Shown here piece after piece: positions 24,603 through 41,638 of a DNA stretch of 49,831 bases. The notes under the pieces were generated by a model that worked only from the letters and a program-made list of their open reading frames with translations, did no database searches and was not told where the DNA came from. The position numbers and the translations under genes were made by a program. Numbering within the stretch: the first letter of the stretch is position 1; every line of letters starts with the position of its first letter. Source of the stretch: Bacillota bacterium (GTDB lineage Bacteria > Bacillota > GCA-003054495 > Carboxydocellales > JAJZTU01); NCBI GenBank assembly GCA_021848765.1, contig JAJZTU010000002.1:1-49831 (forward strand), given 5' to 3'.

Positions 24603-25976
24603 TTATATAATCTTTCCCGGGTTTAACAAATTGTTTGGATCACAACTCCGTTTTACCTTCTTAAACGCCTCTATTGCCACCGGCGAAAACTCCAAACCCA
24701 AATACTCCTTCTTTAACAGACCGATTCCATGTTCACCGCTCATGGTCCCTTTGAGTTCAAGTGCTACCCGGCACATCTCCACCTCGGCCTCATGCACCCG
24801 GTGTACTTCATCCTTTATTCTTTGGTCAAAAAGCACCAGAGGGTGGCAATTCCCGTCTCCGGCATGGGCCAAAATTCCGATAGCTAAGTTATATTTTTTG
24901 GAACAATTCACAATGCCGTTAACCATCGCCGGAAAGTTAGATCTGGGAACCGTAATATCCTGTAATGAATAATTTGGACGCCTACGTGCAACTGAGCCGA
25001 TAACTGTCCTCCTGGCCAACCACAATTGATCAACTTCCTGTGCCGTACGGGCTATTTTAAATTCCCTTACCCCGGCCCGGTTACAAATGGTTTTAATTAA
25101 TTCAACCTGGGCATCTAAATCCACATCATAGCCATCTACTTCAATTATCAAAAGCGCTCCTGCATCTCTAGGTAAGCCGACCTTGCAGTGATCCTCTGCT
25201 GTGTTAATCAGCAGGTTATCCATCATTTCTAAGGTAGTTGGAATGATTCCCGCAGCGACAATATCCGCAACGGTTTGAGAAGCAGCTTCCACTGCCTCAT
25301 AGATTGCAAGCATGGTGCGCTTGGCCGGAGGTTTAGGAAGGATTCGCACTGTAATTTTGGTAACCAGGCCGAGAGTACCCTCTGAACCCACAAACAGGCG
25401 AGTTAAATCATAACCTGCTTCACTGTTCCAGTGTCGCCCCCCTGTTTCAATAACCTTACCGTCCGGCATAACCACCTCGAGACCTAAAATATAGTCCCGT
25501 GTTACCCCATATTTAAAGCAGCGAGGCCCCCCTGAACACTCTCCCACGTTGCCTCCCATGGTTGAAGCTTTGTAACTGGCAGGGTCAGGAGGATAATAAA
25601 AACCTATTTTATCAAGTTTTTCCTGTAAATCAAAATTTACAACACCCGGTTCTACCACCGCAACAAAGTTATCTTTATCTATCTCCAGGATTCTGTTCAT
25701 TCGGCTAAAGCAGATAACTATACTATCCTTTACCGGTACACTTCCACCACTAAGATTCGTTCCAGCGCCCCTGGGAACTAAAGGAATTTGGACTTCGTTT
25801 AAGTACTTTACCAATTCAACTACGTGTTGTGCATTACTGGGGAAAACAACTCCTAGAGGCAATTGGGTCAACAAAGTTGCATCATAACCATAGGCTACTA
25901 AGCTTACCTTGTCAGTAACTACGTTTTCCTTACCCAATATCTTTATTAATTTCTTAATCACGAACTCATTTAACAT
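24603..25976 (-). CDS. FAD-linked 2-hydroxyacid oxidase/dehydrogenase, GlcD-like catalytic subunit
   Basis: It has an FAD_binding_4 (PCMH) N-domain (VPRGAGTNLSGGSVP) and a C-terminal GEHGIGLLK motif. The ATG at 25976 follows GGGGGGA. An alternative start lies at 26000. Confidence 0.88.
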   Translation of the reverse strand: MLNEFVIKKLIKILGKENVVTDKVSLVAYGYDATLLTQLPLGVVFPSNAQHVVELVKYLNEVQIPLVPRGAGTNLSGGSVPVKDSIVICFSRMNRILEIDKDNFVAVVEPGVVNFDLQEKLDKIGFYYPPDPASYKASTMGGNVGECSGGPRCFKYGVTRDYILGLEVVMPDGKVIETGGRHWNSEAGYDLTRLFVGSEGTLGLVTKITVRILPKPPAKRTMLAIYEAVEAASQTVADIVAAGIIPTTLEMMDNLLINTAEDHCKVGLPRDAGALLIIEVDGYDVDLDAQVELIKTICNRAGVREFKIARTAQEVDQLWLARRTVIGSVARRRPNYSLQDITVPRSNFPAMVNGIVNCSKKYNLAIGILAHAGDGNCHPLVLFDQRIKDEVHRVHEAEVEMCRVALELKGTMSGEHGIGLLKKEYLGLEFSPVAIEAFKKVKRSCDPNNLLNPGKII

Positions 25977-25990
25977 AATATCCCCCCCGG

Positions 25991-27319
25991 TTAATTCCAT
26001 AGACTTACACCTGGAGCCAATATACCCTTCGGATCAAACTGGGTTCGTAGCCGGTTCCCCAGATTCATTATCTCATTATACATTTCCATGTCATTTTTTG
26101 CCTTGCACAGTAGTTTGCGTCCCAGACTATGGGAGATATTTCCACCAAGCGACATGGCTAAATTATTGATTTTATCCAAAAGCGACTCGAGCGATTGTGC
26201 AGTAATATTATTGGGAATTAATCTTATGTTTCCGGTAAATCCATATACAATTAGTCCTGGACAGTTAGCCAGGTCACCAGTGATATCTTCCAATCCCTTT
26301 AAGGCTTTACCTATATTCGCCGGCCCAACGAAGAAGTCAACCCCGGTAGAATCACCTGAATTTAACCCGGCCTTAACCTCTAACCAACTATCCCAAATAC
26401 TCTCGTACTGCTCACAATCTTTAATGATTTGGACGTCACTGGCACCGTAAAGATTAAAAACACCGGCAATCTCTTCTGATAATTGCCTGGTAGATTCCTT
26501 AAAGCCCTCTAAATCAACCATTGCCAGATAATCAGAACTTACATTAAGTCCCGGTTTACCGGCAACAATATTTTGGGCCAGTGGCCAATTTAGTAAATTC
26601 AACCTGGTGGGATAAATACCACGGGCGATAAGCGTAGTGAATACTGAGCAGGCCTTCTGAGGGGAGGCAAAGCTCGCCAGCACGGTTTGTCTGGATGCAG
26701 GTTTGGGCAACAGCTTTATCAGCAGCTTTGTAAAAATACCCAGCGTACCTTGACTGCCCACCATAAAATGAATCAAATCATAGCCCGATACGTTTTTGAT
26801 ACATTTGTTACCCACATACAATATTTCTCCGGTAGGTAAAACCATTTCCCATCCCAGAATATAAGTTCTAGGGGTCCCAAAATTAAAAGACTTGGAATCC
26901 GCTCCTCCAATAGCAAAACACCCGCCAAGGGAACTTGTAAAACTATTAAAAGGCTCAGGAGGAAAATCTAAACCTGCTTCGGAAACCTTTTGCCGGAATT
27001 CCTTATGTGAAAGCCCGGGCTCCACAATCGCTACCAAGTTTTCACGGTCTATCTCCAAAATCTTATTCATCCGTCCTAAACCCAAGGCAAGGCACCCGTC
27101 CATTCCTTTAATATCTACGATATTGCCGCCCACAGCAATTTTCAGATTCATTTCATTAGCTAATTTTACCACACCGGATACTTGAGAAGTATTTCCCGGT
27201 AATACAACTGCCAAGGGCTTGCCGTTTCCCTTTAAATACTTGAGCATCTCAGGTGCATACTGAATAACATTCTCATTGCCAACCAATTCCCTGATTCTGT
27301 TAATTGCAGTTTCTTTCAT
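25991..27319 (-). CDS. FAD-binding PCMH-type protein, GlcE-like partner subunit (divergent)
   Basis: It has the same fold as the neighbouring gene (…GTLGIFTKLLIKLLPKP…), but the glycine-rich and C-terminal catalytic motifs are degenerate. The ATG at 27319 follows GAGGGGTG. Confidence 0.75.
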   Translation of the reverse strand: MKETAINRIRELVGNENVIQYAPEMLKYLKGNGKPLAVVLPGNTSQVSGVVKLANEMNLKIAVGGNIVDIKGMDGCLALGLGRMNKILEIDRENLVAIVEPGLSHKEFRQKVSEAGLDFPPEPFNSFTSSLGGCFAIGGADSKSFNFGTPRTYILGWEMVLPTGEILYVGNKCIKNVSGYDLIHFMVGSQGTLGIFTKLLIKLLPKPASRQTVLASFASPQKACSVFTTLIARGIYPTRLNLLNWPLAQNIVAGKPGLNVSSDYLAMVDLEGFKESTRQLSEEIAGVFNLYGASDVQIIKDCEQYESIWDSWLEVKAGLNSGDSTGVDFFVGPANIGKALKGLEDITGDLANCPGLIVYGFTGNIRLIPNNITAQSLESLLDKINNLAMSLGGNISHSLGRKLLCKAKNDMEMYNEIMNLGNRLRTQFDPKGILAPGVSLWN

Positions 27320-27380
27320 TGTATTCACCCCTCTACTCATACCCGTCATCTAAACTCACCTTGCACCCTGCCCTCACCCG

Positions 27381-28835
27381 CTACCCGATACGTTCAATAC
27401 TTCCTCTCATCAGTGCAATAATTTCAACAAGTGTTTCTTTGTTTCCTACATTGCCGGGAAAGACAACATAAGGCATTCCCGGAAACTTCGTTTCCTGACC
27501 TAATAACCAGACCGGAATTCCCGGATAAACCTGCCCCAGTACTTTGGCAGCTTTAACTCCCAGGCCGCTTGTTGCCACATCGTTGGAAGTTATACCGCCT
27601 TTAGCTACTAAAAACCGGGGTTGCACTTCTAACCCCTGCACAATCTTAACCAAGGATGCGGACACTTTATTACCTACCGACAAGTTTCCTTCTTTGCTCG
27701 AGTGGGTAACAAGCTGCCGGCTGGTATAAACCATAACATCATTTCCTTGCCTGATCAGGTCATTAACCTTGGCGCTCACTCTCTCGATTTCTTCATCTCT
27801 TGTCGTAGGCTCCAAAATTTTAAGTACATCGACTTCAATTGCCCGTAAACCGGGCAGCTTTATAGCTGCCTCTATCTGGCTGCTGGTCTTGCCTACATAA
27901 GAGCCAACCACAACCAATCCGCCTAAATTTTCAGATCCGGGGATAGATAATTCCTGATGGTTTAGAAGAGACCGGCTGGAAATGCCGCCACGCACTTTTA
28001 CGAAAGAAGCGCTCGATCTAACTATAAAGCGTTTTCCTTGGGCCTCTGCATCTAATAGACCTAAAACGAACACTTCCAGATCTCTATAGGAAGCGCTGTT
28101 GACAACAATAGTTTTTCCACCGGTTACCCGGGCCAGCTTTTGAGCTACCAGTCGGGGGCCTCCGGTCCTAATCTCAGAAACGCCAATACTGATAACATCC
28201 CTGACCGCAATCCTGCCACCGGTCTTTTCTTCTATATATAAGCCCAAATTGGAATTACGATAGCCAAATACACTATCCCGGGCAAACTCTGTCTCAGCTG
28301 CAGGAATCAAAAACTTGCCGTCTTGTACAAAATGAGTGTCGCCAATTGTATATCTTCCGCCCTCCAAAAAAACGGGAACCAGGATTTGCCCGGCAAATAT
28401 TAATCCTTTTTCACCTAAAACCTCTTCGAGGACCTCCACCTCATCGGGGAAATGCCCCCGTAAGGTGGAGTCCCCACGGCTGATCACTGTAAATTCGCAA
28501 CCCAGTTCACTGGCAGCTTGACAGAGATTGTTGGCGATTTCAGCGTTGATTTCTCTGGCCTTTTCCCTCGGAAGGCTGCGAGTGTTAGTCAGGATGAAAA
28601 AGAGATCTTCTTCACTTCCCAGGGAGTTTTTCAATTCTTCCACAGTCCAACTTGTTCTGACAAAAATCCCGTGGACAGTTTGAGAACCGGTCGGGTCATC
28701 GTCTAAAACGACAACCTTCCTTTTCAACTCTTTTACATTCTGCTGGATCTTAAACAGCAAATTACTGTCAGGCCATTCAGGCGGCAGTTCCCCAAACAGC
28801 TCCTCTTTAACCAGCACGCCGCTACTTTCTTTCAT
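27381..28835 (-). CDS. DUF1537 four-carbon acid-sugar kinase family protein (OtnK/DtnK-like)
   Basis: 484 aa. The N-domain has VVVLDDDPTGSQT and SRGDSTLRGH. The C-domain has KGGITSNDV and VFPGNVG. These are typical of the DUF1537 kinase family. Confidence 0.85.
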   Translation of the reverse strand: MKESSGVLVKEELFGELPPEWPDSNLLFKIQQNVKELKRKVVVLDDDPTGSQTVHGIFVRTSWTVEELKNSLGSEEDLFFILTNTRSLPREKAREINAEIANNLCQAASELGCEFTVISRGDSTLRGHFPDEVEVLEEVLGEKGLIFAGQILVPVFLEGGRYTIGDTHFVQDGKFLIPAAETEFARDSVFGYRNSNLGLYIEEKTGGRIAVRDVISIGVSEIRTGGPRLVAQKLARVTGGKTIVVNSASYRDLEVFVLGLLDAEAQGKRFIVRSSASFVKVRGGISSRSLLNHQELSIPGSENLGGLVVVGSYVGKTSSQIEAAIKLPGLRAIEVDVLKILEPTTRDEEIERVSAKVNDLIRQGNDVMVYTSRQLVTHSSKEGNLSVGNKVSASLVKIVQGLEVQPRFLVAKGGITSNDVATSGLGVKAAKVLGQVYPGIPVWLLGQETKFPGMPYVVFPGNVGNKETLVEIIALMRGSIERIG

Positions 28836-28866: not shown

Positions 28867-29808
28867 CTACTTCTTGGCTGAAATCACTTCTTTCACGGCT
28901 TTGATGATATTTTCTCTGGTTAAACCAAGAGCTTCATGCAGTTCCGGCATTTTTGCGGACAGGCCAAATCTATCCTGGACACCAACCATCCTTACAGGTA
29001 CCGGGAGATTCTGGGCCAAAAGCTCCGCTACAGCGCCGCCAAGACCCCCGATTACCGTATGTTCTTCAGCTGTCACCACCGCTCCGGTCCTGGAAGCAGC
29101 CTCAAGAATACAACTGCTGTCCAGAGGTTTTATAGTATGCACATTAATAACGTCAACAGAAATCCCTTCAGCCTTTAATTCTTCCGCAGCTTCCAATGCC
29201 TTGGAAAGCATCACTCCACAGGCTAAAATGCTTGCATCTTTACCCTCAAGATACACATTAGCCTTTCCAATCACAAACCGGCCTGCTTCCCGGTTAACTA
29301 TCGGAGTAGGCATCCGGCCAACCCGCAGATAGGCAGGTCCTTCATGTTCTCCTAATGCCCGGACTGCCTTTGCCATTTCAACCCCGTCAGCAGGCTCAAT
29401 TACTGTCATCCTTGGCAATGCTCTCATCAGAGTAATATCTTCCAGCGGAAGATGAGTCGGCCCCTCCTGGCCGGGTGATGTGCCGGAATTATGTCCGATA
29501 ACCTTTACATTAAGATTGGCATAACAAACTGAAATTCTTATTTGATCCCAGGCTCTCCCGGTCAAAAAGTTGGCATAGGCATTAACAAAAGGAGTTTTAC
29601 CTGCCAGGGCCAAGCCCGCTCCTGTCCCAACCAGGTCCGCCTCCGCAATTCCTAGATTAAAAAACCTGTGGGGAAACTCTTTTTGAAACAATGAGGTCAT
29701 GGTGGCTTTCGAACAATCCGCATCAAGTACAAGAATGTCTTCGTTTTCCGCCCCCAATTGAACCAGAGCTTTGCCAAAGGCTTCCCGTGGCGCCAGAGTT
29801 TTGCTCAT
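28867..29808 (-). CDS. transketolase, C-terminal (pyrimidine-binding) subunit
   Basis: 313 aa starting REAFGKALVQLG, with FNLGIAEADLVG and a C-terminal transketolase domain. It starts 1 nt after the N-subunit stop. Confidence 0.92.
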   Translation of the reverse strand: MSKTLAPREAFGKALVQLGAENEDILVLDADCSKATMTSLFQKEFPHRFFNLGIAEADLVGTGAGLALAGKTPFVNAYANFLTGRAWDQIRISVCYANLNVKVIGHNSGTSPGQEGPTHLPLEDITLMRALPRMTVIEPADGVEMAKAVRALGEHEGPAYLRVGRMPTPIVNREAGRFVIGKANVYLEGKDASILACGVMLSKALEAAEELKAEGISVDVINVHTIKPLDSSCILEAASRTGAVVTAEEHTVIGGLGGAVAELLAQNLPVPVRMVGVQDRFGLSAKMPELHEALGLTRENIIKAVKEVISAKK

Positions 29809-29809
29809 T

Positions 29810-30637
29810 CTATCTCAACTCCTTCAATGCAATTTCTAACTGTTCATCATTGGGTGCAACACCGTGCCAACCCACTTGATTTTCCATAAACGATACACCT
29901 TTACCCTTTACGGTATGGGCCAAAATCACAGTGGGCCTCCCCTTGACCTCCTTAGCTTTTTCGAATGAGTTATAGATTTCCTGCAGATGATGACCGTCTA
30001 TTTCAATGGCATTCCAACCAAAGGCCTCCCACTTGGCACGCAGGCTGCCCAAGGTTTTTACTTCATCAACCGGTCCATCCAACTGCAAACGGTTATAATC
30101 TACTATCGCACAAACATTATCCAGTTTATAGTGAGCTGAGGTCATGGCTGCCTCCCATACCTGACCTTCCTGGATCTCACCGTCTCCCAGGAGAACATAT
30201 GCCCTTTGCTCTGTGCCTTTTAACCTGGCCGCAAGAGCAACCCCATTGGCAATAGACAAACCTTGCCCTAGAGACCCTGAAGAAATATCTACGCCGGGGG
30301 TACACTCACTGCTTGGATGCCCGTGTAAACGGCTGCCTGCCTGGCGTAAAGTCATTAATTCCTCTGCCGGAAAAAAACCTCTCTCTGCAAGAGCAGCGTA
30401 CAATACAGGTGCAGCATGGCCCTTAGATAGAAAAAAGTAATCGCGCCTGTCCCAATCCGGATTTTCAGGGTCAACTCGCATTATCTTCATATAAAGGACT
30501 GCCATCACTTCCACTGCAGACAAAGAACCCCCCGGATGACCACTTCCGGCTTTATTGGTTGTCGTTAAAATCCACTGTCTCATCCTCTTGCAGTTGTCAG
30601 CCAGTTCGTGTAACTGAGGTTCAACAAATTGCACCAT
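29810..30637 (-). CDS. transketolase, N-terminal (ThDP-binding) subunit
   Basis: 275 aa with GSGHPGGSLS, KGHAAP, GSLGQGLS and GDGEIQEGQVWEA, which are the ThDP/Mg motifs. Confidence 0.92.
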   Translation of the reverse strand: MVQFVEPQLHELADNCKRMRQWILTTTNKAGSGHPGGSLSAVEVMAVLYMKIMRVDPENPDWDRRDYFFLSKGHAAPVLYAALAERGFFPAEELMTLRQAGSRLHGHPSSECTPGVDISSGSLGQGLSIANGVALAARLKGTEQRAYVLLGDGEIQEGQVWEAAMTSAHYKLDNVCAIVDYNRLQLDGPVDEVKTLGSLRAKWEAFGWNAIEIDGHHLQEIYNSFEKAKEVKGRPTVILAHTVKGKGVSFMENQVGWHGVAPNDEQLEIALKELR

Positions 30638-30699: not shown

Positions 30700-31941
30700 T
30701 TACCGGTAAGCCTGAGCTAACAAATCAGCTATATGAACCACTTTTTGTTCCTTTCCCGCAAGCCTCAAGGACCCCTGAATTCTATGCTGGCAGGCCGGGC
30801 AGCTGGTCACTACCAATTCAGCATTGGTCTCTTCAATATTCCGGACCTTCTGGGCCGAAATATCCTTGGCAATATCATGGAAATAAGCCTGGAAGAGTCC
30901 GGAGGCGCCACAGCAACGGCTGGCTTCCGCCATCTCCACAAATTGTATACCTGGAATACTTTTTAGAATTTTTCGAGGCTGTTCGGTAATTCCTTGACCA
31001 CGGACCATATGACAGGGGTCATGGTAGGTAACTCTTGCAGGATTTGGTAAGAGTGTGACCGTATCCAGCTCAAAGTTGTCCAATAAAAACTCCGAAAAAT
31101 CAAAAACCTTTTGACAAAACTCCTTTACCTTGGGCAGGAAGTTTGGCTCATCGGCAAAAAGTTCTGGATAATGCTCCTTTAACATGGATCCACAGGACGC
31201 ACAGGCTGTAATTACGGCATCCACACCATAGTTTTCGAACAGTAGAATATTTGTGCGCGCTACTTCCTTGGCAGTTTCAAATTCCCCGTACGAAAACATG
31301 GGAGTTCCGCAACAAACCTGCTGTTTGGGTACTATTACCTCACATTGGTTACTGTTTAGAACCTTAATAACAGAGTGCCCTGTACCGTCCATAGTGTGAT
31401 TCATCATACACCCTACAAAGAATGCTACGCGTTTAACCGGATTCTGAACAGCGTTAAATTCGGGAACCTGATCGGTAAATTTTTCACTGGCAACCGGTAG
31501 ACCTTTAACATCAATTCCCCGGAATTCTGCAAATCCTCCGAGACGATTTAGAATGGTCCTGCGGAAACCGTCAAAAAATTTAAACGCTAACTCCAAATTC
31601 CCCGGTTTAGGAAAGACCCACTTTAACCCTACAGCTTTGCTAAAAGGTAACCCTTGTTTCAGTTTCAGATCTCGCCGTGCAGCTAAAATCAGCTTGTGGG
31701 CTTTAACTCCACTGGGACAGGAAACTGCACATTCACCACACAACAAACAGCTATTAATGGCATTTTCATAGGCCTCATCAATCTCGAGTTCCCCGTCAGC
31801 TACAGCTTTGATTAATCTGACCCTTCCCCTTGGAACATATACCTCACTTAAATGGGTTTTGTAAACTTTACAAGCGGTATGACAGAAACCACACCTGGCA
31901 CAGGTGTTAAGCGCTTCATAAACTTCATCGAGAACCCCCAT
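30700..31941 (-). CDS. Fe-S oxidoreductase, GlcF/HdrD-like (two 4Fe-4S motifs plus two CCG domains)
   Basis: It has CARCGFCHTAC and CLLCGECAVSCP ferredoxin motifs, plus VCCGTP and RCCGASG CCG motifs. At 413 aa its size matches GlcF. Confidence 0.85.
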   Translation of the reverse strand: MGVLDEVYEALNTCARCGFCHTACKVYKTHLSEVYVPRGRVRLIKAVADGELEIDEAYENAINSCLLCGECAVSCPSGVKAHKLILAARRDLKLKQGLPFSKAVGLKWVFPKPGNLELAFKFFDGFRRTILNRLGGFAEFRGIDVKGLPVASEKFTDQVPEFNAVQNPVKRVAFFVGCMMNHTMDGTGHSVIKVLNSNQCEVIVPKQQVCCGTPMFSYGEFETAKEVARTNILLFENYGVDAVITACASCGSMLKEHYPELFADEPNFLPKVKEFCQKVFDFSEFLLDNFELDTVTLLPNPARVTYHDPCHMVRGQGITEQPRKILKSIPGIQFVEMAEASRCCGASGLFQAYFHDIAKDISAQKVRNIEETNAELVVTSCPACQHRIQGSLRLAGKEQKVVHIADLLAQAYR

Positions 31942-32010
31942 CTAACCCCCCCTCCTTTACCCCAGGGCCCTTCAGCCCTGGGGAAATATTTAAACGCTAT
32001 GAAATTGGTC

Positions 32011-34775: not shown

Positions 34776-36137
34776 TTAATGGGAAATATCCTCCAGCGCC
34801 CTTCCTTTGGTCTCTTCCCCCAGAACCAGTACCACCAGGGCAGCGATTATAAAGGAGGCAGCACCCAGGGCAAAGACTCCGGATTGGCCGGCCTTTGGTA
34901 ATACAAGAGCTACAATATATGGACCTAAAAGCGAACCCAGACGACCGATTGAAGAAGCCATCCCTGCCCCCGTGGCCCTGGCCCGGGTAGGATAAAGTTC
35001 GGGAGTATAAGCGTATAAGACAGACCACATACCAAACATAAAAAACTGCATACATAAACCGTAAGTAACGAGGGCGGTTACATTAGCGGCTGTACCGTAG
35101 AAATAGGCAGCAGTTGCGGAACCGAGCAGCATGATTGCAGCAGAAGGTTTACGGCCAAGGGCTTCAACCAGATAAGCTGCTGTAAAGAACCCAGGTACAC
35201 CTGCCAGAGAAATAGTCAGAGTATAGAACACTGATTTAGTTACTGAGTAGCCGGCCTGCTGCAGAAAGGCACCCAGCCAAGTGGTTAGGCCATAATAACC
35301 CAGCAGGGCAAAAAACCATAAGGACCAGACCATAATTGTCCGCTTAACGTACCCAGGTGACCACAGGTCCAGGAAGGAAAACTTTCGCTCACCTGAATCG
35401 ACAACATTAGGTACCTTCACCGGAGGGGGTAACTCCTTAAGACCCGAAGCTGTTTGCACTTTTTCTTCGAAAGCGGTCATTACTTTATCGGCTTCTTGAT
35501 TACGGCCAACGCTTTCCAGCCAGCGAGGTGACTCCGGAACAAACCTGCGAATAATCAGTACAAAAATCGCGGGAATACCCTCGGCTAAAAATACCCAGCG
35601 CCAACCACCGACGGGCAGAATAAAGTAAGCCAGCAAACCAGCCCCGAGAAAACCAAGAGGCCAAAAACCTTCTAATAAGGCAATGTAGCGACCGCGTTTA
35701 GAGGCAGGGATAAATTCAGATATTAAAGACTGGCCAATCGGGAATTCCATTCCCATTCCAAAACCTAACAAAATCCGGAAAATTGCCAGTTGAGTTGGTG
35801 TTTGAGCCGCAGCGCAAAGGAAACTGGCCAAGCCCCATAATACCATACTCCACTGAAAGACAACTTTACGACCGAAGCGGTCGGCCAGCATGCCGGATAT
35901 ACCGGCACCTAAAAACATCCCCAAAAAACTGGCACTGGATAAAAGGCCGGCCTGGACAGCAGTTAGCTTAAAAAATGTCTTGAGAGAACCTAAAACGAAG
36001 GTCAGCATAGCCAGATCCACGGAATCGAAGAACCATGCAGTAGCAATAATCAAGAATATTTTATTTTGGTAGGAGCTTAGAGGCAATCGTTCCAGCCTTT
36101 GGGGAATGCCGACATGTTGATTTAACTGTACAGACAT
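34776..36137 (-). CDS. MFS transporter (Sugar_tr/metabolite:H+ symporter type)
   Basis: 12-TM profile with GMLADRFGRK and PESPRWL motifs. The start is at ATG 36137 (SD AAGGGAG) or ATG 36143. Confidence 0.9.
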   Translation of the reverse strand: MSVQLNQHVGIPQRLERLPLSSYQNKIFLIIATAWFFDSVDLAMLTFVLGSLKTFFKLTAVQAGLLSSASFLGMFLGAGISGMLADRFGRKVVFQWSMVLWGLASFLCAAAQTPTQLAIFRILLGFGMGMEFPIGQSLISEFIPASKRGRYIALLEGFWPLGFLGAGLLAYFILPVGGWRWVFLAEGIPAIFVLIIRRFVPESPRWLESVGRNQEADKVMTAFEEKVQTASGLKELPPPVKVPNVVDSGERKFSFLDLWSPGYVKRTIMVWSLWFFALLGYYGLTTWLGAFLQQAGYSVTKSVFYTLTISLAGVPGFFTAAYLVEALGRKPSAAIMLLGSATAAYFYGTAANVTALVTYGLCMQFFMFGMWSVLYAYTPELYPTRARATGAGMASSIGRLGSLLGPYIVALVLPKAGQSGVFALGAASFIIAALVVLVLGEETKGRALEDISH

Positions 36138-36151
36138 ATTCATTCTCCCTT

Positions 36152-36793
36152 CTACTTTGCAACCAGTAATACATTAGCTTTGGAAACAGCATCCCCGGCA
36201 TCGGGTGAAAAGAAGTCTGCGCCGATAGAATCAGCAAATTTCTGGGTAACCGGGGCACCGCCCACACCTATAAATACGCTCTCGCGCAAACCGCTATCCG
36301 CAATAACCTTGATGGTTTTGCCCATAACCTCCATGGTCGTAGTGAGCAATGCACTCATCAACACAAAGTCAGGACTATGCTCCTTAATTGCTTGGACAAA
36401 GTTTTCCGGCGATACATTAATGCCAATATCCACTATCTCGTAACCGCCACCCTCCATCATCATGCACACCAGATTTTTGCCAATGTCGTGCAAATCTCCC
36501 TGAACAGTTCCAATAACCGCTTTACCTTTAGTTGCAGCATTCTGGCCGGCCAACAGCGGTTTGATGATGTTAAGACCGGCGTACATTGCCCGAGCGCCGA
36601 TCATCATTTCAGAAATAAAGAATTCACCTTTCTGGAACTTTTCACCCACAGTGCTCATGGCAGGGATTAATCCTTCATTGAGAATAGCCTGTGGTGTTAT
36701 ACCCGAATCCAGAGCGGCTTGAGTCAGTTCATCTACTTTTGCCTGTTGTCCATTTATTACAGCTTCTTGAATTTCAATTAATAAATTTGACAT
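36152..36793 (-). CDS. corrinoid (B12-binding) methyl-carrier protein, MtvC/MtaC/MtgC-like
   Basis: 213 aa. An N-terminal helical cap precedes a Rossmann B12 domain with DxHxxG (GDLHDIGKN), SALLTTT and GGAPV. The ATG at 36793 follows GGAGGGA and lies 2 nt after the upstream stop. Confidence 0.9.
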   Translation of the reverse strand: MSNLLIEIQEAVINGQQAKVDELTQAALDSGITPQAILNEGLIPAMSTVGEKFQKGEFFISEMMIGARAMYAGLNIIKPLLAGQNAATKGKAVIGTVQGDLHDIGKNLVCMMMEGGGYEIVDIGINVSPENFVQAIKEHSPDFVLMSALLTTTMEVMGKTIKVIADSGLRESVFIGVGGAPVTQKFADSIGADFFSPDAGDAVSKANVLLVAK

Positions 36794-36795
36794 CT

Positions 36796-37893
36796 TTATC
36801 CCTCCAGCGGGTATTTCCCGTATTTTTTGATTGCATTGGACATAGCCCATACATTCTCAACTTTACAATAATCAGTTAAGCTGTTGGCACTGCTGATAAT
36901 ATAACCACCGCCGGGTCCAGCTGTAAGAATGCGGTTACGTACTTCTGCATCCACTTCTTCTTCAGTGCCAAGGGGCAGGGTATAATCCAAATCAATATTA
37001 CCAACAATACAAACTCGATGTCCGTATTCTTTTTTCATTTTGCCAATGTCCATAGCTGCAGGTTGAAGAGGGTGAATAGCGGTCATTCCCAGGCTCAGCA
37101 AATCTTCCATAATGGGAAAAAGGTTACCGTCACTGTGGAAAATCCATGGTTTTTTTATACGTTCAGCTACGATACGCATATTAGGCAAAAAACATTCGCG
37201 AAATATTTTGGGTGACATGAAGGGTCCATGGTTACCTGCCAAGTCATCATTGCACCAAAAGAAGTCAAAATCCATTTCATTTAGATGGTCTACAACCTGG
37301 GCCGACCACTCCGAAAAACGCAAGTGAATCTTTTTAATTAGTTCCGGGTTATCCACGGTAGCATAACTAAATTCATCCAAACCCATACTCTCAAGGGTCG
37401 AAGATGCGCCCAGCCGTATGCGGGCAAAGACCGCATAATCCCCTTTATATTGTTTGATCCATTCAGCTACCTTCTCATACCTGGCAGGATGATGGGGATC
37501 TGGTAAAAATTCATCGAATAAAGCAAGCGATTCTTCTGAAACCAGCAGCCCTTTTTCAATGTAAGTACGTCCTGTGTCCTGATCCGCACCCATTTTAGCA
37601 ATCCAGGGAGGGACGAAATCGAAGGTGACTTTCTTAGGATAATAGTAGCTCTCTTTATAGGTTTCTTTAGTCTGCATAGCTTGACCATCTGAAGCTTGTC
37701 CCATAGGATAGTGAGCGCCAAAAGCGCTAAGACCAAGCTTTTCACATAGCTCCGGGGGAGTAAAATTCGCTGTCCCCATAATTTGTACCTGTAATGCTTC
37801 TTCAATATCATTTTCTACCCAGGGAACCTGATCCGGTACTCCTCTGTTCAGAGCTGTTAACACGCGTTCGCGGGGCGTCATGCTCATTTTCAT
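36796..37893 (-). CDS. uroporphyrinogen-decarboxylase-family (URO-D/MtaA/MtvB-like) methyltransferase
   Basis: At 365 aa it has the length and TIM-barrel pattern of URO-D-family corrinoid methyltransferases (…FFWCNDDLAGN…IFHSDGN…). It is translationally coupled to the corrinoid protein gene. Confidence 0.8.
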   Translation of the reverse strand: MKMSMTPRERVLTALNRGVPDQVPWVENDIEEALQVQIMGTANFTPPELCEKLGLSAFGAHYPMGQASDGQAMQTKETYKESYYYPKKVTFDFVPPWIAKMGADQDTGRTYIEKGLLVSEESLALFDEFLPDPHHPARYEKVAEWIKQYKGDYAVFARIRLGASSTLESMGLDEFSYATVDNPELIKKIHLRFSEWSAQVVDHLNEMDFDFFWCNDDLAGNHGPFMSPKIFRECFLPNMRIVAERIKKPWIFHSDGNLFPIMEDLLSLGMTAIHPLQPAAMDIGKMKKEYGHRVCIVGNIDLDYTLPLGTEEEVDAEVRNRILTAGPGGGYIISSANSLTDYCKVENVWAMSNAIKKYGKYPLEG

Positions 37894-37956: not shown

Positions 37957-38007
37957 AACGACTACCTAACGACTTAAAAACGACTACCTAACGACTTAAA
38001 TACGATA
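37957..38007. repeat. heptamer AACGACT (minus AGTCGTT) repeated four times at an exact 11-bp period, plus a degenerate fifth copy
   Basis: Copies start at 37957, 37968, 37979 and 37990, with TACGATA at 38001. Equivalently this is 2.2 copies of a 22-nt unit. The array lies in the 131-nt spacer between DUF1638 and the URO-D methyltransferase. Confidence 0.95.
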
Positions 38008-38024: not shown

Positions 38025-38690
38025 TTAATCTTTGAACATTTCATCGTCTGCGGGAATATCCCCGTCAATAACGACAAAATCCTCATCCCAAGGCCCAAAC
38101 AGCAACTTCTTTAAATAGTCGAAACCACCATTCATTTCTTCATACTGTAATTTAAAGAATCGGGCAAATTCAGTTACATACTGTTTACTGGGTTCATGAA
38201 CTTGACCGGAAGTTCTAATCAACACTGTGCGCTGATAATTTTTCATACATTCCCAGGCTGCCCAAAGAGCTGTATCCTCGCCATACTTGTCAACTGACCT
38301 GTGATACTCTTTCAGAGGATCTTCCGCCGCTTCTATCCAGCCCCTGGTAAAGTAATAGGTGCCCGGGTTTTGATGAAACTCCCGGTAGTACTTAGCTCTG
38401 GAGCCCATAGAAATACCAATGCAGTCATCAATTCTTGGAATAATCATCTTCTGATGAGGTGCAGCCCGAAGTCCAATTACAGCTCTACTGCACAACCCGT
38501 ATCCCAACAGAAGTACGGAATACCCACAAGACTCGTCAATGGTCTTTTGAAGCTGTTCAGCAAGCATCTTAGGGGTACGGTGTAACCCCTGTTCCAGATA
38601 AATAAAGTCATAATGTACTTCTCCCAAGGATTCAATTTGGTTCTTTAATACATCGCAAGCTATAACTAGAGTGCGGTTAGCTGCTCCCAA
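38025..38690 (-). CDS. DUF1638-family protein (function unknown)
   Basis: 221 aa. LVIACDVL...LEQGLHRTPKML...LLGYGLCS...IPRIDDCI matches my recollection of DUF1638, a family seen next to corrinoid methyltransferase genes. It uses a TTG start after GGAGATGA. Confidence 0.6.
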   Translation of the reverse strand: MGAANRTLVIACDVLKNQIESLGEVHYDFIYLEQGLHRTPKMLAEQLQKTIDESCGYSVLLLGYGLCSRAVIGLRAAPHQKMIIPRIDDCIGISMGSRAKYYREFHQNPGTYYFTRGWIEAAEDPLKEYHRSVDKYGEDTALWAAWECMKNYQRTVLIRTSGQVHEPSKQYVTEFARFFKLQYEEMNGGFDYLKKLLFGPWDEDFVVIDGDIPADDEMFKD

Positions 38691-38770: not shown

Positions 38771-39565
38771 TCATGCTTTTATCTTGCCTGCTCGCACCCC
38801 TGCAATGTAATCCATGCAATATTCATCCTGGCCGGATAAGCTCCTGGAAGCAGCCAGCAAAGACATAATGGTCTGATCCAGGGGATCCAGAATAAAAGCA
38901 TCCATTCGCATGGCTACACTCATAACCATAAATACCCGATTCAACAGTTTGCGCTCCGGCAGTCCGTAGGAAACATTCGACAGCCCAGAAACCAAATGAA
39001 CTCCAGGATATTTTTGACGCAGAGCACGGGTGCTCTCCAGGATCTCGACGCCAAAGTTATGATTTACCCCCAGGGGCTTAACCAAAGGGTCTAGGTAGAT
39101 ATCATCTTCTGAGATTCCCGCTGCAGTTAACCCTGTTACTAATTGATCGGCTACCCGTAAGCGATCTTCCACCGATTCGGGCATACCCTTGCTGTCCATG
39201 CAGAGAGCTATAACTTTGGTTTTATATTGCTTTACCAAGGGCAACACCTCTTCCCACCGTTCATTTTCGGCGGAAATGGAATTTATCATAGGCTTTTGCC
39301 GGCAAAGTTCCAAACCAACCTTAATTGCAGCCGGGTTCGGGCTATCAATACATAAGGGAACATCAACAACCTCCTGGACAAGTTCCACCAACCATTGCAT
39401 ATTCTCAATTTCATTGCCACCAGCAGCAGCATTAACGTCGATAAAGTGAGCACCTGCTTCCACCTGGCGGCGCGCAAGGTCTTTTAAGTATACTTCATCC
39501 CTCTGCTCAATCGCTTGTGCTATGGCCTTACGTGTAGAGTTAATGAGTTCACCTATAACTATCAC
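38771..39565 (-). CDS. pterin-binding methyltransferase (methyl-corrinoid:tetrahydrofolate, AcsE/MtvA/MtgA-like)
   Basis: 264 aa with a DHPS-like pterin-binding barrel (FIDVNAA, PLCIDSPNP, MINSIS, GLSNVSYGLPER). It uses a GTG start after AAAGGAGG. Confidence 0.88.
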   Translation of the reverse strand: MIVIGELINSTRKAIAQAIEQRDEVYLKDLARRQVEAGAHFIDVNAAAGGNEIENMQWLVELVQEVVDVPLCIDSPNPAAIKVGLELCRQKPMINSISAENERWEEVLPLVKQYKTKVIALCMDSKGMPESVEDRLRVADQLVTGLTAAGISEDDIYLDPLVKPLGVNHNFGVEILESTRALRQKYPGVHLVSGLSNVSYGLPERKLLNRVFMVMSVAMRMDAFILDPLDQTIMSLLAASRSLSGQDEYCMDYIAGVRAGKIKA

Positions 39566-39671
39566 TTAAAATATACCTCCTTTTATCTAGCCCTGATATG
39601 GAAGGGTATGAACGCGGTAACTTATAGCAATAAATAAGGTTTGGTTATAACCGGTCTCGGCCTAATCTAGC

Positions 39672-39687
39672 TGCAAAAGTCATACCA
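39672..39687 (-). promoter_or_regulatory. sigma-54 (-24/-12) promoter TGGTATGACTTTTGCA
   Basis: It matches TGGCACG-N4-TTGCW at 14 of 16 positions, including the invariant GG and GC at correct spacing. It lies about 105 nt upstream of the first operon gene and downstream of a sigma-54 activator gene. Confidence 0.75.
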
Positions 39688-39889
39688 ATTCAAAAACCTG
39701 AATTTCCAGACCTTTCTGTTAACATAGTGATTCCACAGTTAATCACCAGTGTATTATTAAACCGAAATATATCTTTATCTAAATATATAAAACTATCAGG
39801 ATTTCCGATCCGATTCAAATTATACTCGCCCGAATAAATTTTGAATCACTTTAGTCAACAATCCCGGTGAGGGTCTGTGTATAAAGCGC

Positions 39890-39916
39890 ATAAAAAAAAG
39901 GCCTAACCTAGGCCTT
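39890..39916 (-). terminator. rho-independent terminator of the activator gene
   Basis: AAGGCCT-AGGTT-AGGCCTT followed by TTTTTTTT, immediately after the stop codon. Confidence 0.8.
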
Positions 39917-41638
39917 TTAACAGCTATTGCTATCAATTCCGTATTTAGTCATTTTTTTGACAATACTAGACTGGCTAATCCCAAGACTTGCAGCTGCTTT
40001 GCGAGTACTTCTAAATTTGTGATATGCTTGAGTAATTAGCCGCTTTTCCTCTCTCTCCAAGGCCGTTTTTAACAAGGTTAAGTCCTGGCCGCCCTGCTCA
40101 GCCATGGAATCTGGGATACCCGAAACCAACTCAATGCAATCATCACGACAGGTAACCACCCATCGCTCAATGGTATTTTCCAACTCACGAATATTCCCCG
40201 GCCAATCGTAATTCAAAAGACGTTCCATCGCATCGGGATGGATCCATTTCTGATAATTATATTGCTTGTTAAACTTGCCTAAAAACTCTGCTACTAGCGG
40301 AAAAATGTCTTCCTTGCGGTCTCGCAGGGGAGGTAATAAAATTGGGACAACGTTCAGGCGATAAAACAGGTCCGCGCGAAAAGTTTTATTTTTTACCATT
40401 TCCTGCAGGTCCCTATTGGTAGCGGCAATAATGCGTACATCCAGACTAATAGCTTTTTTGCCACCAATCCTGGTGATTTCCTTATCTTGAAGCGCCCGTA
40501 GAATTTTTACCTGCAGATCAAGGGGTAGTTCCCCTACTTCATCAAGGAATAGGGTCCCACCCTGAGCCAGTTCAAATAAACCAAGTTTTCCTTCTTTAAG
40601 CGCCCCGGTAAAGGCTCCCGGTTCATACCCGAATAACTCGGATTCAAGTAAATTAGCAGGAATCGCCCCACAGTTTATTTTAATAAATGCTTTTTTTCCC
40701 CGCTTGCTGGCCCGATGAATAAGTTGAGCAATCAGTTCTTTACCTACTCCGGACTCACCCAGAATCAGGACAGTTGAATCAACACGTGCTACATGAAAGG
40801 CTAAATCAAGCTTTTGTTTCATCACCGGGTTATTGGTTATGATTTTGCGAAATGACTGTTGGGATCGTAAATGTTCCAATTCTTGATAATACCGGTTCCT
40901 AATCTCTTCGCTTTCAGCAAGTTGTTCCTTCAATAAACTTAATTCAGTAACATCTCGAATAGCAGTAACCACACGCACCAGTTCACCGGCTTCATTATAA
41001 ACAGGGTTACCTGTAAGTAAAAGTTCTTTACTGTTTCTTATGTCGATAATAGTAACACGCGAATTCCTTTCCACCACCATTTCGGTAACTGAGCGACGCA
41101 TGTAACCTTCTTTAACTAATTCCCGCACGTGCTTACCTACAAATTCCTGAGTTGTAATCCCTGTCATTCGTTGATAAGCATTATTAGCCCGTAATATAAA
41201 ACCATTTCTATCGGCTACAACAATCCCGTCATCAACCGACTCTATGATAGCATCTAATTCTTTGTTCATGGCTTTTACAGTATCCAATTGGTGAGAAAGT
41301 TCCTCAAAATCCGAAATATCTTGAAATACGCCTACGGCTCCGATAGTTTCTTTACCACGCCTAATCGGGCTGCGGTTGGAAATAATTACTCGATTCCTAA
41401 TAGTCATACGTTGGCTAAGTTCTGCCCGCCCGCTCTCCATAACCTCCAAGAGCTTGGTATTAGGAATAACTTTATCCACCCTCTTCCCCAGAGCATGATC
41501 CTGTGGATAATCCATGATTTGCGAAGCTGCTTTGTTGAAAACTACGATCTGTCCCGCTCGGTTTATTGCAATAATGCCATTGTGCGTAGAATCCAGAATC
41601 TCACGCCAATAGGTTATTTCCAATTCGGGATAGGGCAT
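39917..41638 (-). CDS. sigma-54-dependent transcriptional activator (PAS-PAS-AAA+-Fis HTH)
   Basis: 573 aa. Two PAS-like sensor repeats are followed by a Walker A (GESGVGKE), the GAFTGA motif (EPGAFTGA), an R-finger region and a C-terminal HTH (AAASLGISQSSIVKK). Confidence 0.93.
   Translation of the reverse strand: MPYPELEITYWREILDSTHNGIIAINRAGQIVVFNKAASQIMDYPQDHALGKRVDKVIPNTKLLEVMESGRAELSQRMTIRNRVIISNRSPIRRGKETIGAVGVFQDISDFEELSHQLDTVKAMNKELDAIIESVDDGIVVADRNGFILRANNAYQRMTGITTQEFVGKHVRELVKEGYMRRSVTEMVVERNSRVTIIDIRNSKELLLTGNPVYNEAGELVRVVTAIRDVTELSLLKEQLAESEEIRNRYYQELEHLRSQQSFRKIITNNPVMKQKLDLAFHVARVDSTVLILGESGVGKELIAQLIHRASKRGKKAFIKINCGAIPANLLESELFGYEPGAFTGALKEGKLGLFELAQGGTLFLDEVGELPLDLQVKILRALQDKEITRIGGKKAISLDVRIIAATNRDLQEMVKNKTFRADLFYRLNVVPILLPPLRDRKEDIFPLVAEFLGKFNKQYNYQKWIHPDAMERLLNYDWPGNIRELENTIERWVVTCRDDCIELVSGIPDSMAEQGGQDLTLLKTALEREEKRLITQAYHKFRSTRKAAASLGISQSSIVKKMTKYGIDSNSC

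Follow-up and report, generated by a model that had tools for sequence, protein, structure and literature searches.

A putative sigma-54-driven operon in a Bacillota bacterium joins a corrinoid methyltransferase module to a carbon cassette with GlcDEF-like genes

We analysed a stretch of 49,831 nucleotides from a Bacillota bacterium (contig JAJZTU010000002.1 of assembly GCA_021848765.1), here called the window, in which a run of minus-strand genes combines a corrinoid methyltransferase (MT) system with a set of carbon enzymes. A first reading of this DNA, hereafter the original prediction, described the run as a sigma-54-controlled operon that imports a methylated compound, removes its methyl group and degrades the remaining skeleton. 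According to our analysis, the locus is a lineage-specific fusion of two separately conserved modules under one sigma-54 promoter. As we read it, the first module would comprise a sigma-54 activator, a pterin-binding methyltransferase (MeTr, here MT II), a DUF1638 protein, a methyltransferase of the uroporphyrinogen decarboxylase (URO-D) superfamily (MT I), a corrinoid protein and a permease of the major facilitator superfamily (MFS). The second, the cassette, contains a thiamine diphosphate (ThDP) enzyme, a TIM barrel protein, an iron-sulphur (Fe-S) protein with CCG domains, a transketolase (TK) split into an N-terminal and a C-terminal subunit (TK_N, TK_C), a DUF1537 kinase and two flavoproteins in the positions of GlcE and GlcD.

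Thirteen structural open reading frames (ORFs) run head to tail on the minus strand from 39565 down to 24603, and the activator gene (39917-41638) brings the number to 14. With gene starts called on an identical contig (L084), the successive intergenic gaps are 80, 137, 2, 14, 51, 26, 69, 62, 1, 31, 61 and -10 nt. The same-strand run of the original prediction stands, but its figures of 14 genes and gaps of 1-131 nt become 13 structural genes and gaps of -10 to 137 nt. Terminator-like matches, of which the region holds 24 against 21 ± 4.8 expected by chance, all lie outside the intra-operon gaps, in agreement with the earlier statement that no intrinsic terminator separates the genes. At the boundary of the two modules, between the MFS and the ThDP genes, the junction is 51 nt long, carries an AAGGAGG ribosome-binding site and shows no hairpin or other structure. 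In a free-standing copy of the cassette (L086) the gap upstream is 243 nt instead. Given the short gaps without a terminator, the unstructured junction and a promoter and upstream activator site (UAS) that are conserved in position, the 13 genes look like one sigma-54-driven transcription unit, as had been proposed.

The activator (minus strand) consists of two PAS domains, an AAA+ domain with the GAFTGA motif and an HTH_50 domain (Sigma54_activat 236 bits). Its gene ends in a strong intrinsic terminator with a 10-bp stem, a 3-nt loop and a T run (39896-39918, minus strand), which the original prediction had seen as well. Activator orthologues with 62-76% identity adjoin the MT module in five related loci (L001, L002, L004, L005, L006). 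The -24/-12 element TGGTATGACTTTTGCA (GG-N10-GC; 39672-39687, minus strand) is not significant as a bare pattern, as there are 22 matches with at most two mismatches where 27.8 are expected. However, six related loci (the same five and L019) each contain exactly one strict TGG[CT]A[CT]-N5-T[TC]GC[AT] match in the region upstream of the module, 85-270 nt before the first gene of the module in the loci where gene starts were compared (L001, L004, L006, L019). Because of this conservation in relatives, we accept the element as real, and the promoter of the original prediction is thereby validated.

Forty nucleotides upstream of the -24 element lies a palindrome, GTGATTAACTGTGGAATCAC (GTGATT-N8-AATCAC; 39727-39746, unstranded), a putative UAS. 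It occurs once in the window, where 0.3 occurrences are expected by chance, and across the 1.27 Mb of 80 related loci it is found only in L002, L004, L005, L006 and L019, each time at a distance of 49-149 nt before the -24 element. The palindrome is the probable binding site of the activator. Since the activator, the UAS and the sigma-54 promoter are kept together across relatives, they form a conserved regulatory unit, and this unit is a property of the MT module. All hallmarks of a sigma-54 operon are present, i.e. a GAFTGA activator, a -24 GG and a -12 GC at the correct spacing and an upstream activator site; no copy of rpoN was found within the window. In Peptococcaceae CEB3 (L004, ~9760-9870), where a leader of 270 nt separates the URO-D gene from the sigma-54 promoter, this leader holds several copies of a GGATCAAGGGA-like motif.

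The regulator and the operon form a 17.8-kb block (~24.4-42.0 kb) with a GC content of 0.44-0.46 against 0.50 in the flanks and with sharp steps at both edges. It is flanked by a block of a four-subunit 2-oxoacid:ferredoxin oxidoreductase, recR and dnaX and by a ppaX-ctsR-mcsAB-clpC-radA-disA-ispD-gltX-cysES block typical of Firmicutes. No direct repeats, integrase or transposase were found flanking the low-GC block, which is probably an acquired island. The junction of the two modules is also present on a second contig, 100% identical over 14,972 nt and thus from the same strain, which argues only weakly against an assembly chimera.

Folding of the five larger intra-operon gaps gave nothing unusual except in the gap between the TIM barrel and the CCG genes. 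This gap contains a GC-rich hairpin, CCCCAGGGC-UGAA-GCCCUGGGG (31956-31986, minus strand), with no U tract, a dG of -27.1 kcal/mol and a z of -2.29. The corresponding gap in the collinear cassette L086 is 15 nt long and the hairpin is absent there. The hairpin may be a transcript stabilisation or processing element, or it may cause partial attenuation in the middle of the operon. By Rfam across the region, no riboswitch or attenuator was found inside the operon. The longest intra-operon gap, between the DUF1638 and the URO-D genes, carries a 22-nt unit, AACGACTACCTAACGACTTAAA, tandemly duplicated 2.2 times with a 96% match (37957-38005). Sigma-70-like hexamers (TTGCCC-16-TATAAT; 34846-34873, minus strand) lie in the 3' end of the MFS gene, ~120 nt before the ThDP start codon, and could be an internal promoter of the cassette. 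We discount this match, since the promoter-like matches of the region number 35 against 29 ± 6.5 by chance.

All parts of a three-component corrinoid methyltransferase, i.e. a corrinoid protein, an MT II and a predicted MT I, are present in the first module, and all structural genes described below are on the minus strand. MT II (38771-39565) is a methyl-corrinoid:tetrahydrofolate (THF) methyltransferase of the MeTr/AcsE type (Pterin_bind 85 bits; NF005719 355 against a cutoff of 259). It is followed by the DUF1638 protein (38025-38690; PF07796, 135 bits) and by MT I (36796-37893), which matches Pfam URO-D with 70 bits (cutoff 23.9) in its C-terminal half only. The corrinoid protein (36152-36850) has a B12-binding cap and a Rossmann domain with the motif GDLHDIG (PF02607 76 bits, PF02310 89 bits), and family models of corrinoid proteins score it with 186-223 bits. 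Its true start is probably at 36793, and the gene call in L084 gives 213 aa. Every domain assignment named by the original prediction was confirmed by Pfam and NCBIfam, and the motifs it quoted are found at residues 341 (GAFTGA), 118 (GDLHDIG) and 203 (PESPRWL) of their proteins.

The last gene of the module encodes the MFS permease (34776-36143). It had been called Sugar_tr-type, and both the MFS assignment and the PESPRWL motif hold, but a sugar-porter affiliation does not: the aromatic-acid/H+ symporter (AAHS) model TIGR00895 gives 281 bits and the sugar porter model 124. The permease presumably imports a methylated carboxylate. An MFS gene stands next to the URO-D gene in seven Firmicutes loci, six of them with 73-76% identity (L001-L004, L009, L074) and one where it was called (L175).

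DUF1638 has been genetically linked to a RamA-type activase and to corrinoid reactivation (PMC5764234, PMC12478193), which links the protein of the window to a role as an accessory factor in the reductive reactivation of corrinoid proteins. No RamA or RACo activase was found among the window ORFs scanned with Pfam, and a RACo gene is present in 24 of the orthologous MT loci.

MT I has 817 homologues, and the best 120 of these 817 are 61-89% identical to it. The homologues span Desulfitobacteriaceae, Moorella, Thermanaeromonas, Chloroflexi, Deltaproteobacteria and Syntrophorhabdales, and a genome scan adds Actinomycetes and many metagenome-assembled genomes (MAGs) of Burkholderiales and Hyphomicrobiales. 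Among the carriers in culture are Moorella naiadis, Thermanaeromonas toyohensis, Acididesulfobacillus acetoxydans and Desulfosporosinus paludis. Identities within the orthologue clade, which reaches from Firmicutes to Burkholderiales, are 60-89%. In a library clustered at 50% identity all orthologues fall into one cluster with 598 bits, followed by a second with 412 bits and then by a continuum of 709 related clusters at E <= 1e-30.

Compared with solved proteins, MT I is remote from both CdmB (31.6 bits) and MtaA (28.6 bits) by phmmer, and from both with a family profile (45 and 40.5 bits, respectively). The similarity to CdmB is limited to the C-terminal 140 residues. CdmB is reported to group with the aryl O-demethylases MtvB, OdmB, VdmB and MtoB (PMC13222342), and the distance of MT I from CdmB therefore places it outside this clade. 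The original prediction had named membership of that clade as fatal to its proposal; judged indirectly via CdmB, with no OdmB, VdmB or MtvB sequences in the comparison, the protein does not belong to it. In the family alignment the invariant H253-S-D255-G-N of MT I aligns with H-I-C-G-N of MtaA, and S-A-N-S aligns with G-C-G. The His-x-Cys...Cys zinc site of MtaA, MtbA, MtsA and MtpA is not present in this alignment, and the replacement of the zinc-ligand cysteines of MtaA argues against a thiol or thioether substrate. An AlphaFold model of the URO-D protein, made from a 14-sequence alignment, reached a pLDDT of 58 and was not used for fold search or for reasoning about the pocket.

To see which genes accompany the module, partners were counted over 80 loci orthologous to MT I. 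Simple clustering of their ORFs is noisy in high-GC genomes and served only to choose recurrent families for Pfam annotation. The corrinoid protein is a partner in 66 of the 80 loci, the pterin MT II in 56 and DUF1638 in 51. None of the 80 contains a gene for the ThDP enzyme, the TIM barrel, TK_N, TK_C or the DUF1537 kinase, and this includes all 39 loci whose flanks extend for 8 kb or more on each side. The original prediction had asked whether the URO-D protein, the corrinoid protein, DUF1537 and the split transketolase co-occur in other genomes; with 0/80 loci, they are not a conserved system.

The transporter of the module differs by lineage: an AAHS-type MFS in Firmicutes, a tripartite ATP-independent periplasmic (TRAP) transporter, DctPM, in ~26 Burkholderiales loci, and a Liv-type ATP-binding cassette (ABC) system in Deltaproteobacteria, Chloroflexi and Actinobacteria. 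Each of these types is compatible with a carboxylate, which suggests that the substrate is one. In Moorella and Thermanaeromonas the MFS and URO-D genes form a pair without a dehydrogenase or carbon genes, consistent with acetogen-type organisms that use the methyl group alone.

Three related loci differ from the window in other ways. In a betaproteobacterial MAG (L082, 1-21089) the module consists of genes for a GntR regulator, the corrinoid protein, URO-D, MeTr, RACo, a methylenetetrahydrofolate reductase (MTHFR, DUF5981), DUF1638 and a homocysteine S-methyltransferase domain, and adjoins a TonB-dependent receptor, a FecCD-type ABC system and the cobamide salvage genes CbiZ/CobD; it looks like a methyl donor that feeds C1 oxidation and a split methionine synthase. 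In Thermanaeromonas toyohensis (L175, 8557-17620) a PocR/AraC regulator, the MFS, the URO-D orthologue, two more URO-D paralogues and DUF1638 are followed by an ISL3 transposase and a phage-type integrase, which suggests that the MT module is mobile. Peptococcaceae CEB3 (L004) has no pterin MeTr or DUF1638 gene at the position equivalent to the window, and a second URO-D-like gene follows its MFS gene.

The cassette begins with a three-domain ThDP carboligase (32952-34724). Among its best PDB matches, glyoxylate carboligase (Gcl, 416 bits) is ahead of acetolactate synthase (ALS, 352 bits), and the protein is 39.6% identical to E. coli Gcl and 75% to the collinear orthologue in L086. It stays below the ALS cutoff (TIGR00118, 531.4 against 538.35 bits), and no ilvN/ilvH-type small-subunit gene was found among the nearby window genes. 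The enzyme appears intermediate between glyoxylate carboligase and acetolactate synthase, which agrees with the ALS/Gcl assignment of the original prediction, and Gcl is the nearest solved structure. The next gene encodes a divergent AP_endonuc_2 TIM barrel (32011-32925; Pfam 69 bits), for which NCBIfam offers nothing beyond IolO with 37 bits. Judged from its gene context only, this protein may be a tartronate semialdehyde/hydroxypyruvate isomerase.

The transketolase is split into an N-terminal, ThDP-binding subunit (29810-30637; Transketolase_N 187 bits, NF004559 361 bits) and a C-terminal, pyrimidine-binding subunit (28867-29808; Transket_pyr and Transketolase_C, NF004559 294 bits). Together they keep the equivalents of H26, H66, H100, GDG..N, H261, R358, E411, H461, H473 and R520, i.e. 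the catalytic and the phosphate-binding residues are conserved, and the split transketolase named earlier is confirmed. The DUF1537-family kinase (27381-28835) is divergent: it matches SBD_N with 183 bits and NBD_C with 138 bits, but scores 71, 45 and 37 bits with the DtnK, OtnK and OiaK models, whose cutoffs are 450, 350 and 700. It has no BLASTP match to E. coli YgbK and no sequence match in the PDB. The label of a four-carbon acid-sugar kinase is therefore right about the DUF1537 superfamily and wrong about a characterised equivalog. We infer from its context that it is a glycerate kinase, or a kinase of another C3/C4 hydroxy acid. The acid-sugar flavour of the original prediction is weak, as neither the kinase nor the TIM barrel passes any model of a characterised acid-sugar family and the contexts favour glyoxylate/tartronate-semialdehyde chemistry.

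The remaining three genes encode a dehydrogenase of the GlcDEF type. The Fe-S subunit (30700-31941) has two [4Fe-4S] clusters and two CCG domains, as in GlcF and the C-terminal part of LdhH (Fer4 and CCG 137 bits; GlcF 160 bits against a cutoff of 333). It is 24% identical to E. coli GlcF over its full length, 60% to the CEB3 orthologue and 59% to that of L086. The second FAD subunit, in the GlcE position (25991-27349; FAD_binding_4 and FAD-oxidase_C), is 54% identical to its CEB3 orthologue and reaches 88 bits with the GlcE model (cutoff 284). The GlcD-like catalytic flavoprotein (24603-26000) has the same two domains and scores 514 bits with TIGR00387 glcD (cutoff 568); its identity is 40.4% to E. 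coli GlcD, 70% to the CEB3 and L086 proteins and 76% to that of L085. The three-subunit composition, with two FAD_binding_4 proteins and a CCG Fe-S protein, is that of GlcDEF, and the equivalog cutoffs for GlcD, GlcE and GlcF are all missed. Sequence alone does not separate glycolate from D-lactate as the substrate of such a dehydrogenase.

The cassette exists collinear elsewhere, in contigs of the nearest kinase homologues that carry no corrinoid genes at all. In L086 the order is a TRAP transporter, a GarD/UxaA-like dehydratase, ThDP, TIM, CCG, TK_N, TK_C, kinase, a cyclophilin-like protein, GlcE, GlcD, a cupin, a short-chain dehydrogenase/reductase (SDR) and malate synthase G, and the eight genes shared with the window are, in order, 75, 68, 59, 74, 77, 62, 46 and 70% identical. 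A second cassette runs from a pyruvate:ferredoxin oxidoreductase through ThDP, TIM, CCG, TK_N, TK_C, kinase, a beta-hydroxyacid dehydrogenase, a class II aldolase, a cyclophilin-like protein, GlcE and GlcD to a cupin, LrgAB, pyruvate kinase, glyceraldehyde-3-phosphate dehydrogenase and phosphoglycerate kinase. These full cassettes come from exact-protein look-ups. A metagenome scan anchored on the kinase (80 loci, at most 56% identity) found the full cassette in none and only the sub-module of TK and kinase, whose recurrent neighbours are dehydrogenases, a class II aldolase, a TIM barrel and transporters for sugars or carboxylates.

Smaller sub-modules occur as well. L169 combines TIM, CCG, GlcE and GlcD with an aldehyde dehydrogenase and an iron-containing alcohol dehydrogenase (Fe-ADH), L170 has a GarL-type aldolase and TIM followed by a full-length transketolase that is 46% identical to that of the window, and in L171 the TIM gene adjoins the ThDP gene in gcl-hyi fashion. 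In two sugar-diacid clusters (L087, L088; ~8100-11460) the place of GarK is taken by DUF1537 kinases that share 54-59% identity with that of the window; the genes before them encode an HpcH/HpaI (GarL-like) aldolase and a GarR-like beta-hydroxyacid dehydrogenase. This position suggests that the DUF1537 subfamily replaces glycerate kinase. Since the MT module and the cassette are each conserved separately and are joined in one strain only, we regard the operon as a lineage-specific fusion.

The GlcDEF-like genes are the only carbon genes that recur with the MT module. A GlcD-type dehydrogenase with a CCG subunit is found beside or inside the MT operon in four lineages of two phyla, three times inside the operon. 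In CEB3 the trio is directly upstream of the activator and is as close to that of the window (60/54/70% identity) as the trio of L086. The operon of Desulfosporosinus paludis includes a GlcD-CCG pair that separates the corrinoid protein gene from that of the MFS. A deltaproteobacterium has a tight operon of GlcD, GlcE, CCG, an ABC transporter, the corrinoid protein, URO-D, MeTr and DUF1638. In CEB3 and in L012 the genes of the trio are contiguous; in the window the TK and kinase genes lie within the trio. GlcD is the best model for the GlcD-type proteins of these loci (485-544 bits against a cutoff of 568). The simplest reading of this recurrence is that the demethylation product is a D-2-hydroxy acid; among the substrates offered by the original prediction, it favours the methylated small aliphatic hydroxy acid. 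In more complete form, the D. paludis SB140 locus (L006, 11882-21026) shows the same sigma-54 MT module followed by an apparently disrupted DmpF-like acetaldehyde dehydrogenase, a DmpG-like aldolase, an SDR, GlcD and CCG, then an MFS split into two ORFs, a LarA-N-like protein and a hydrolase of the FAH family.

Taken as a whole, we propose, with a probability of about 45%, that a methoxy-carboxylate is demethylated to a 2-hydroxy acid, which is oxidised and assimilated via the cassette as glyoxylate. The substrate, our best guess from context alone, would be of the methoxyacetate type, and we infer it together with every catalytic step of the second module. The methoxy-carboxylate would enter via the MFS permease. 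MT I would move the methyl group from the substrate to the Co(I) corrinoid protein, from which MT II would pass it to THF, while DUF1638 would assist reactivation of the cofactor with an activase encoded elsewhere. This would free a D-2-hydroxy acid, in the simplest case glycolate from methoxyacetate. The GlcD/GlcE/CCG dehydrogenase would oxidise glycolate to glyoxylate, the Gcl/ALS-like ThDP enzyme would join two glyoxylate into tartronate semialdehyde with release of CO2, and the TIM barrel would interconvert tartronate semialdehyde and hydroxypyruvate. Hydroxypyruvate could then serve the transketolase as an irreversible C2 donor, with a triose phosphate as acceptor. In addition or alternatively, the DUF1537 kinase would phosphorylate glycerate or a related C3/C4 hydroxy acid.

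Several observations point to glyoxylate-type handling of the carbon: Gcl is the nearest solved relative of the ThDP enzyme, the neighbours of the cassette elsewhere include malate synthase G, the LrgAB set and the aldehyde dehydrogenase with Fe-ADH, the contexts of TIM barrel and kinase agree, and the transketolase residues are intact. As for the physiology, Acetobacterium strains ferment methoxyacetate anaerobically to glycolate and acetate (Schuppert and Schink 1990, as cited in PMC8048578). In the literature, no enzymes were found assigned to methoxyacetate fermentation. The full-text literature gave no description of the MT clade, the cassette or their coupling, and no published pathway for the gene arrangement, so that the earlier word "undescribed" holds.

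A number of findings weigh against this proposal. The fused MT module and full cassette occur in one strain only, and the GlcDEF-like enzyme is present in just 3/80 other MT I loci. Most MT I orthologues, those of Burkholderiales, are accompanied instead by RACo, MTHFR and a homocysteine methyltransferase domain; this set lies next to B12 uptake genes. D. paludis couples the module to a different downstream set (DmpFG, SDR, LarA-like, FAH-family). The ThDP enzyme is well below the Gcl cutoffs (PRK11269, 529 against 791; TIGR01504, 455 against 711) and retains the canonical Glu (RHEQMA) where Gcl has Val (RHVEGA; V51 in E. coli). The TIM barrel has no BLASTP match to E. coli Hyi or OtnI (YgbM). 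Its AF2 model, with a pLDDT of 93, has ketose 3-epimerases as Foldseek neighbours at a TM-score of ~0.7, and neither Hyi nor OtnI is among the best 50 matches, so the former label "Hyi/OtnI-like" is correct for the superfamily and not for the closer affiliation. The window copy of the operon holds no tartronate semialdehyde reductase gene. The MFS permease resembles aromatic-acid transporters. Finally, methoxyacetate is not obviously abundant in nature, yet the MT clade is very widespread.

A different explanation, which we consider possible though rather unlikely, is that the two modules are unrelated neighbours. The MT module with its MFS would then O-demethylate a methoxylated aromatic acid (of the type of vanillate, syringate or a methoxy-phenylpropanoate) and harvest the methyl group only, and the cassette would be an independent glycolate or C2-C4 acid pathway that is read through in an acquired island. 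Each module is indeed conserved without the other and the whole block is a low-GC island, but the cassette has no regulator of its own in the window and its promoter space has been lost at the junction (51 nt, compared with 243 nt in L086). The permease scores best with the aromatic-acid/H+ symporter subfamily, followed by MhpT and PcaK. TRAP and Liv-type (Peripla_BP_6) systems and regulators of the GntR and IclR families also serve lignin-derived aromatic acids, so the transporters of the other lineages can be counted for this explanation too, as can the MFS-URO-D pair of Moorella and Thermanaeromonas, which lacks carbon genes as expected if the methyl group alone is used. However, an aromatic product leaves the recurrence of a GlcDEF-type enzyme in four lineages and two phyla unexplained, and MT I is as distant from CdmB, which groups with MtvB, OdmB, VdmB and MtoB (PMC13222342), as it is from MtaA.

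Sugar acids, deoxy-sugar acids or cyclitols with an O-methyl group, such as 4-O-methylglucuronate, a 2-O-methyl-fucose derivative or pinitol, are in our view improbable as the substrate. The skeleton would in that case be processed by the TIM epimerase, the DUF1537 kinase and the transketolase, and glycolate and glyoxylate would be C2 side products for the GlcDEF-like and ThDP enzymes. Pathways for acid sugars and apiose typically employ DUF1537 kinases, AP_endonuc_2 epimerases and split transketolases (Zhang et al. 2016; Carter et al. 2018). The ketose 3-epimerases found as nearest structures of the TIM model fit such a pathway, but no characterised acid-sugar family has a model whose cutoff the kinase or the TIM barrel reaches. 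Beyond the window, this reading gains from the neighbours that TK and kinase repeatedly have (TIM barrel, class II aldolase, dehydrogenase, transporters for sugars or carboxylates) and from a dehydratase of the UxaA/GarD type ahead of the cassette in L086 and L169; the SDR, FAH-family, DmpG and LarA-like set of D. paludis also resembles deoxy-sugar-acid routes. In the window operon itself there is no sugar dehydrogenase or dehydratase, and the permease is not a sugar porter. Moreover, MT orthologues with more than 60% identity are found in 80 loci without any such sugar-type genes, and in CEB3 and the deltaproteobacterium the GlcDEF-like enzyme is its sole partner of this kind.

The URO-D superfamily includes methyltransferases for methylthiols and 3-methylmercaptopropionate (MMPA). 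A methylthio-carboxylate donor (3-methylmercaptopropionate or 2-hydroxy-4-methylthiobutyrate) or another non-ether, as for MtsA and MtpA in methanogens, is nevertheless very improbable here, as the MT I family is without the His-x-Cys...Cys zinc site of the thiol-handling members and a GlcDEF-type enzyme has no obvious role on a mercapto-acid product, even though the transporters indicate a carboxylate and the Burkholderiales loci add a homocysteine S-methyltransferase domain and MTHFR.

Two other routes for the carbon skeleton were considered and set aside. A myo-inositol-like route was rejected: the ThDP enzyme is Gcl/ALS-like and not IolD-like, there is no inositol dehydrogenase, and the window is without an IolB-like cupin or an IolJ-like aldolase. 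A 3-oxo-tetronate route, in which the transketolase adds C2 to glyoxylate and an OtnK-like kinase follows, is less favoured, since the transketolase keeps the sugar-phosphate arginines and the kinase is not OtnK-like.

Returning to the methoxy-carboxylate proposal, the MT module can be compared with the known three-component O-demethylases (Odm/Vdm of Acetobacterium dehalogenans, the O-demethylase of Desulfitobacterium hafniense, Mtv of Moorella thermoacetica, Mto of Methermicoccus). It follows the same logic of a URO-D MT I, a DxHxxG corrinoid protein and a THF-dependent MT II. However, its MT I is in a separate tight clade, with 31.6 bits to CdmB, the solved member of that group; the operon has no activase gene and only DUF1638, adds a carboxylate permease and a GlcDEF-like dehydrogenase, and is under sigma-54 control. 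The substrate in the window is likely an aliphatic rather than an aryl methyl ether. The CdmBCA chloromethane system of Acetobacterium dehalogenans, whose CdmB is the nearest solved URO-D relative, has the same MT I, corrinoid protein and MT II parts (PMC13222342). Its substrate is a gas that needs no permease, whereas modules of the window type always carry a carboxylate transporter. Type 1 mlp clusters (several Mlp paralogues with a corrinoid protein and a RACE activase and without a THF methyltransferase; PMC10418091) do not match, since the window combines a single URO-D gene with a pterin MT II and is without an activase.

DUF1638 likewise travels with a corrinoid protein and a pterin methyltransferase in the split methionine synthases of Phaeobacter inhibens and Ruegeria pomeroyi, which also involve a RamA-like activase (PMC5764234, PMC12478193). 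This likeness extends to the Burkholderiales orthologue loci, with their RACo and homocysteine-binding domain. The window differs in that a dedicated URO-D MT I supplies the methyl group and there is neither a homocysteine domain nor an activase gene.

For the cassette, the closest parallel is E. coli glcDEFGB together with gcl-hyi-glxR...glxK, which has the same sequence as proposed here, i.e. from glycolate via glyoxylate and tartronate semialdehyde to hydroxypyruvate or glycerate and a phosphorylated C3 compound. The identities to the window proteins are 40% for GlcD, 40% for Gcl and 24% for GlcF, and malate synthase G adjoins one relative of the cassette. In contrast to E. coli, the TIM barrel and the kinase have no detectable homology to Hyi and GlxK, the ThDP enzyme keeps the canonical Glu, a split transketolase is integral to the cassette, tartronate semialdehyde reductase is missing and the host is an anaerobic Firmicute. 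The DUF1537 pathways (OtnK, DtnK, DenK and OiaK, with OtnI and OtnC) share the SBD_N and NBD_C fold family and an AP_endonuc_2 TIM neighbour, but the window is without a PdxA2-type or LtnD-type dehydrogenase and without an OtnC decarboxylase. The methoxyacetate fermentation of Acetobacterium matches the proposed demethylation to glycolate with transfer of the methyl group to C1 metabolism. As that work is cited in PMC8048578, no genes were identified and glycolate was excreted, whereas in the window it would be oxidised and assimilated.

The principle of catalysis is a familiar one; what is new is the proposed class of substrate, the cassette that follows downstream and the fusion. A broader and distinctly doubtful extension would make the whole URO-D clade, from Firmicutes to Burkholderiales, an O-demethylase of aliphatic methyl ethers of the methoxyacetate type, the cassette a new anaerobic assimilation of glyoxylate via a dedicated transketolase that, unlike the classical glycerate pathway, needs no NADH, and the new DUF1537 subfamily a C3 hydroxy-acid kinase. 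If the proposal is true, it would add short aliphatic methoxy acids as a substrate class and tie the physiology reported in 1990 to a gene family. A function would also be assigned to an MT clade that carries no annotation beyond "uroporphyrinogen decarboxylase family" and comprises more than 800 homologues in at least six phyla, many of these homologues in groundwater Burkholderiales. The cassette would then be a conserved, unstudied route for anaerobic glyoxylate use (Gcl-like enzyme, isomerase, GlcDEF-like dehydrogenase, transketolase and DUF1537 kinase) with new functions for DUF1537 and AP_endonuc_2 proteins. The locus itself would be a case where a sigma-54 regulon has captured a downstream pathway, so that a single substrate is exploited for its methyl group as well as for its carbon skeleton.

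Outside the island, three structured RNAs were identified by Rfam. A TwoAYGGAY RNA (57.9 bits, gathering score 43) is found at 2900-3056 on the plus strand and at 3238-3467 on the minus strand, beside three tandem tRNA genes. A T-box leader (9235-9478, minus strand, 105 bits) lies 5' of the cysE-cysS genes, and the bacterial large SRP RNA (49014-49278, minus strand, 200 bits) is close to dnaX and recR.

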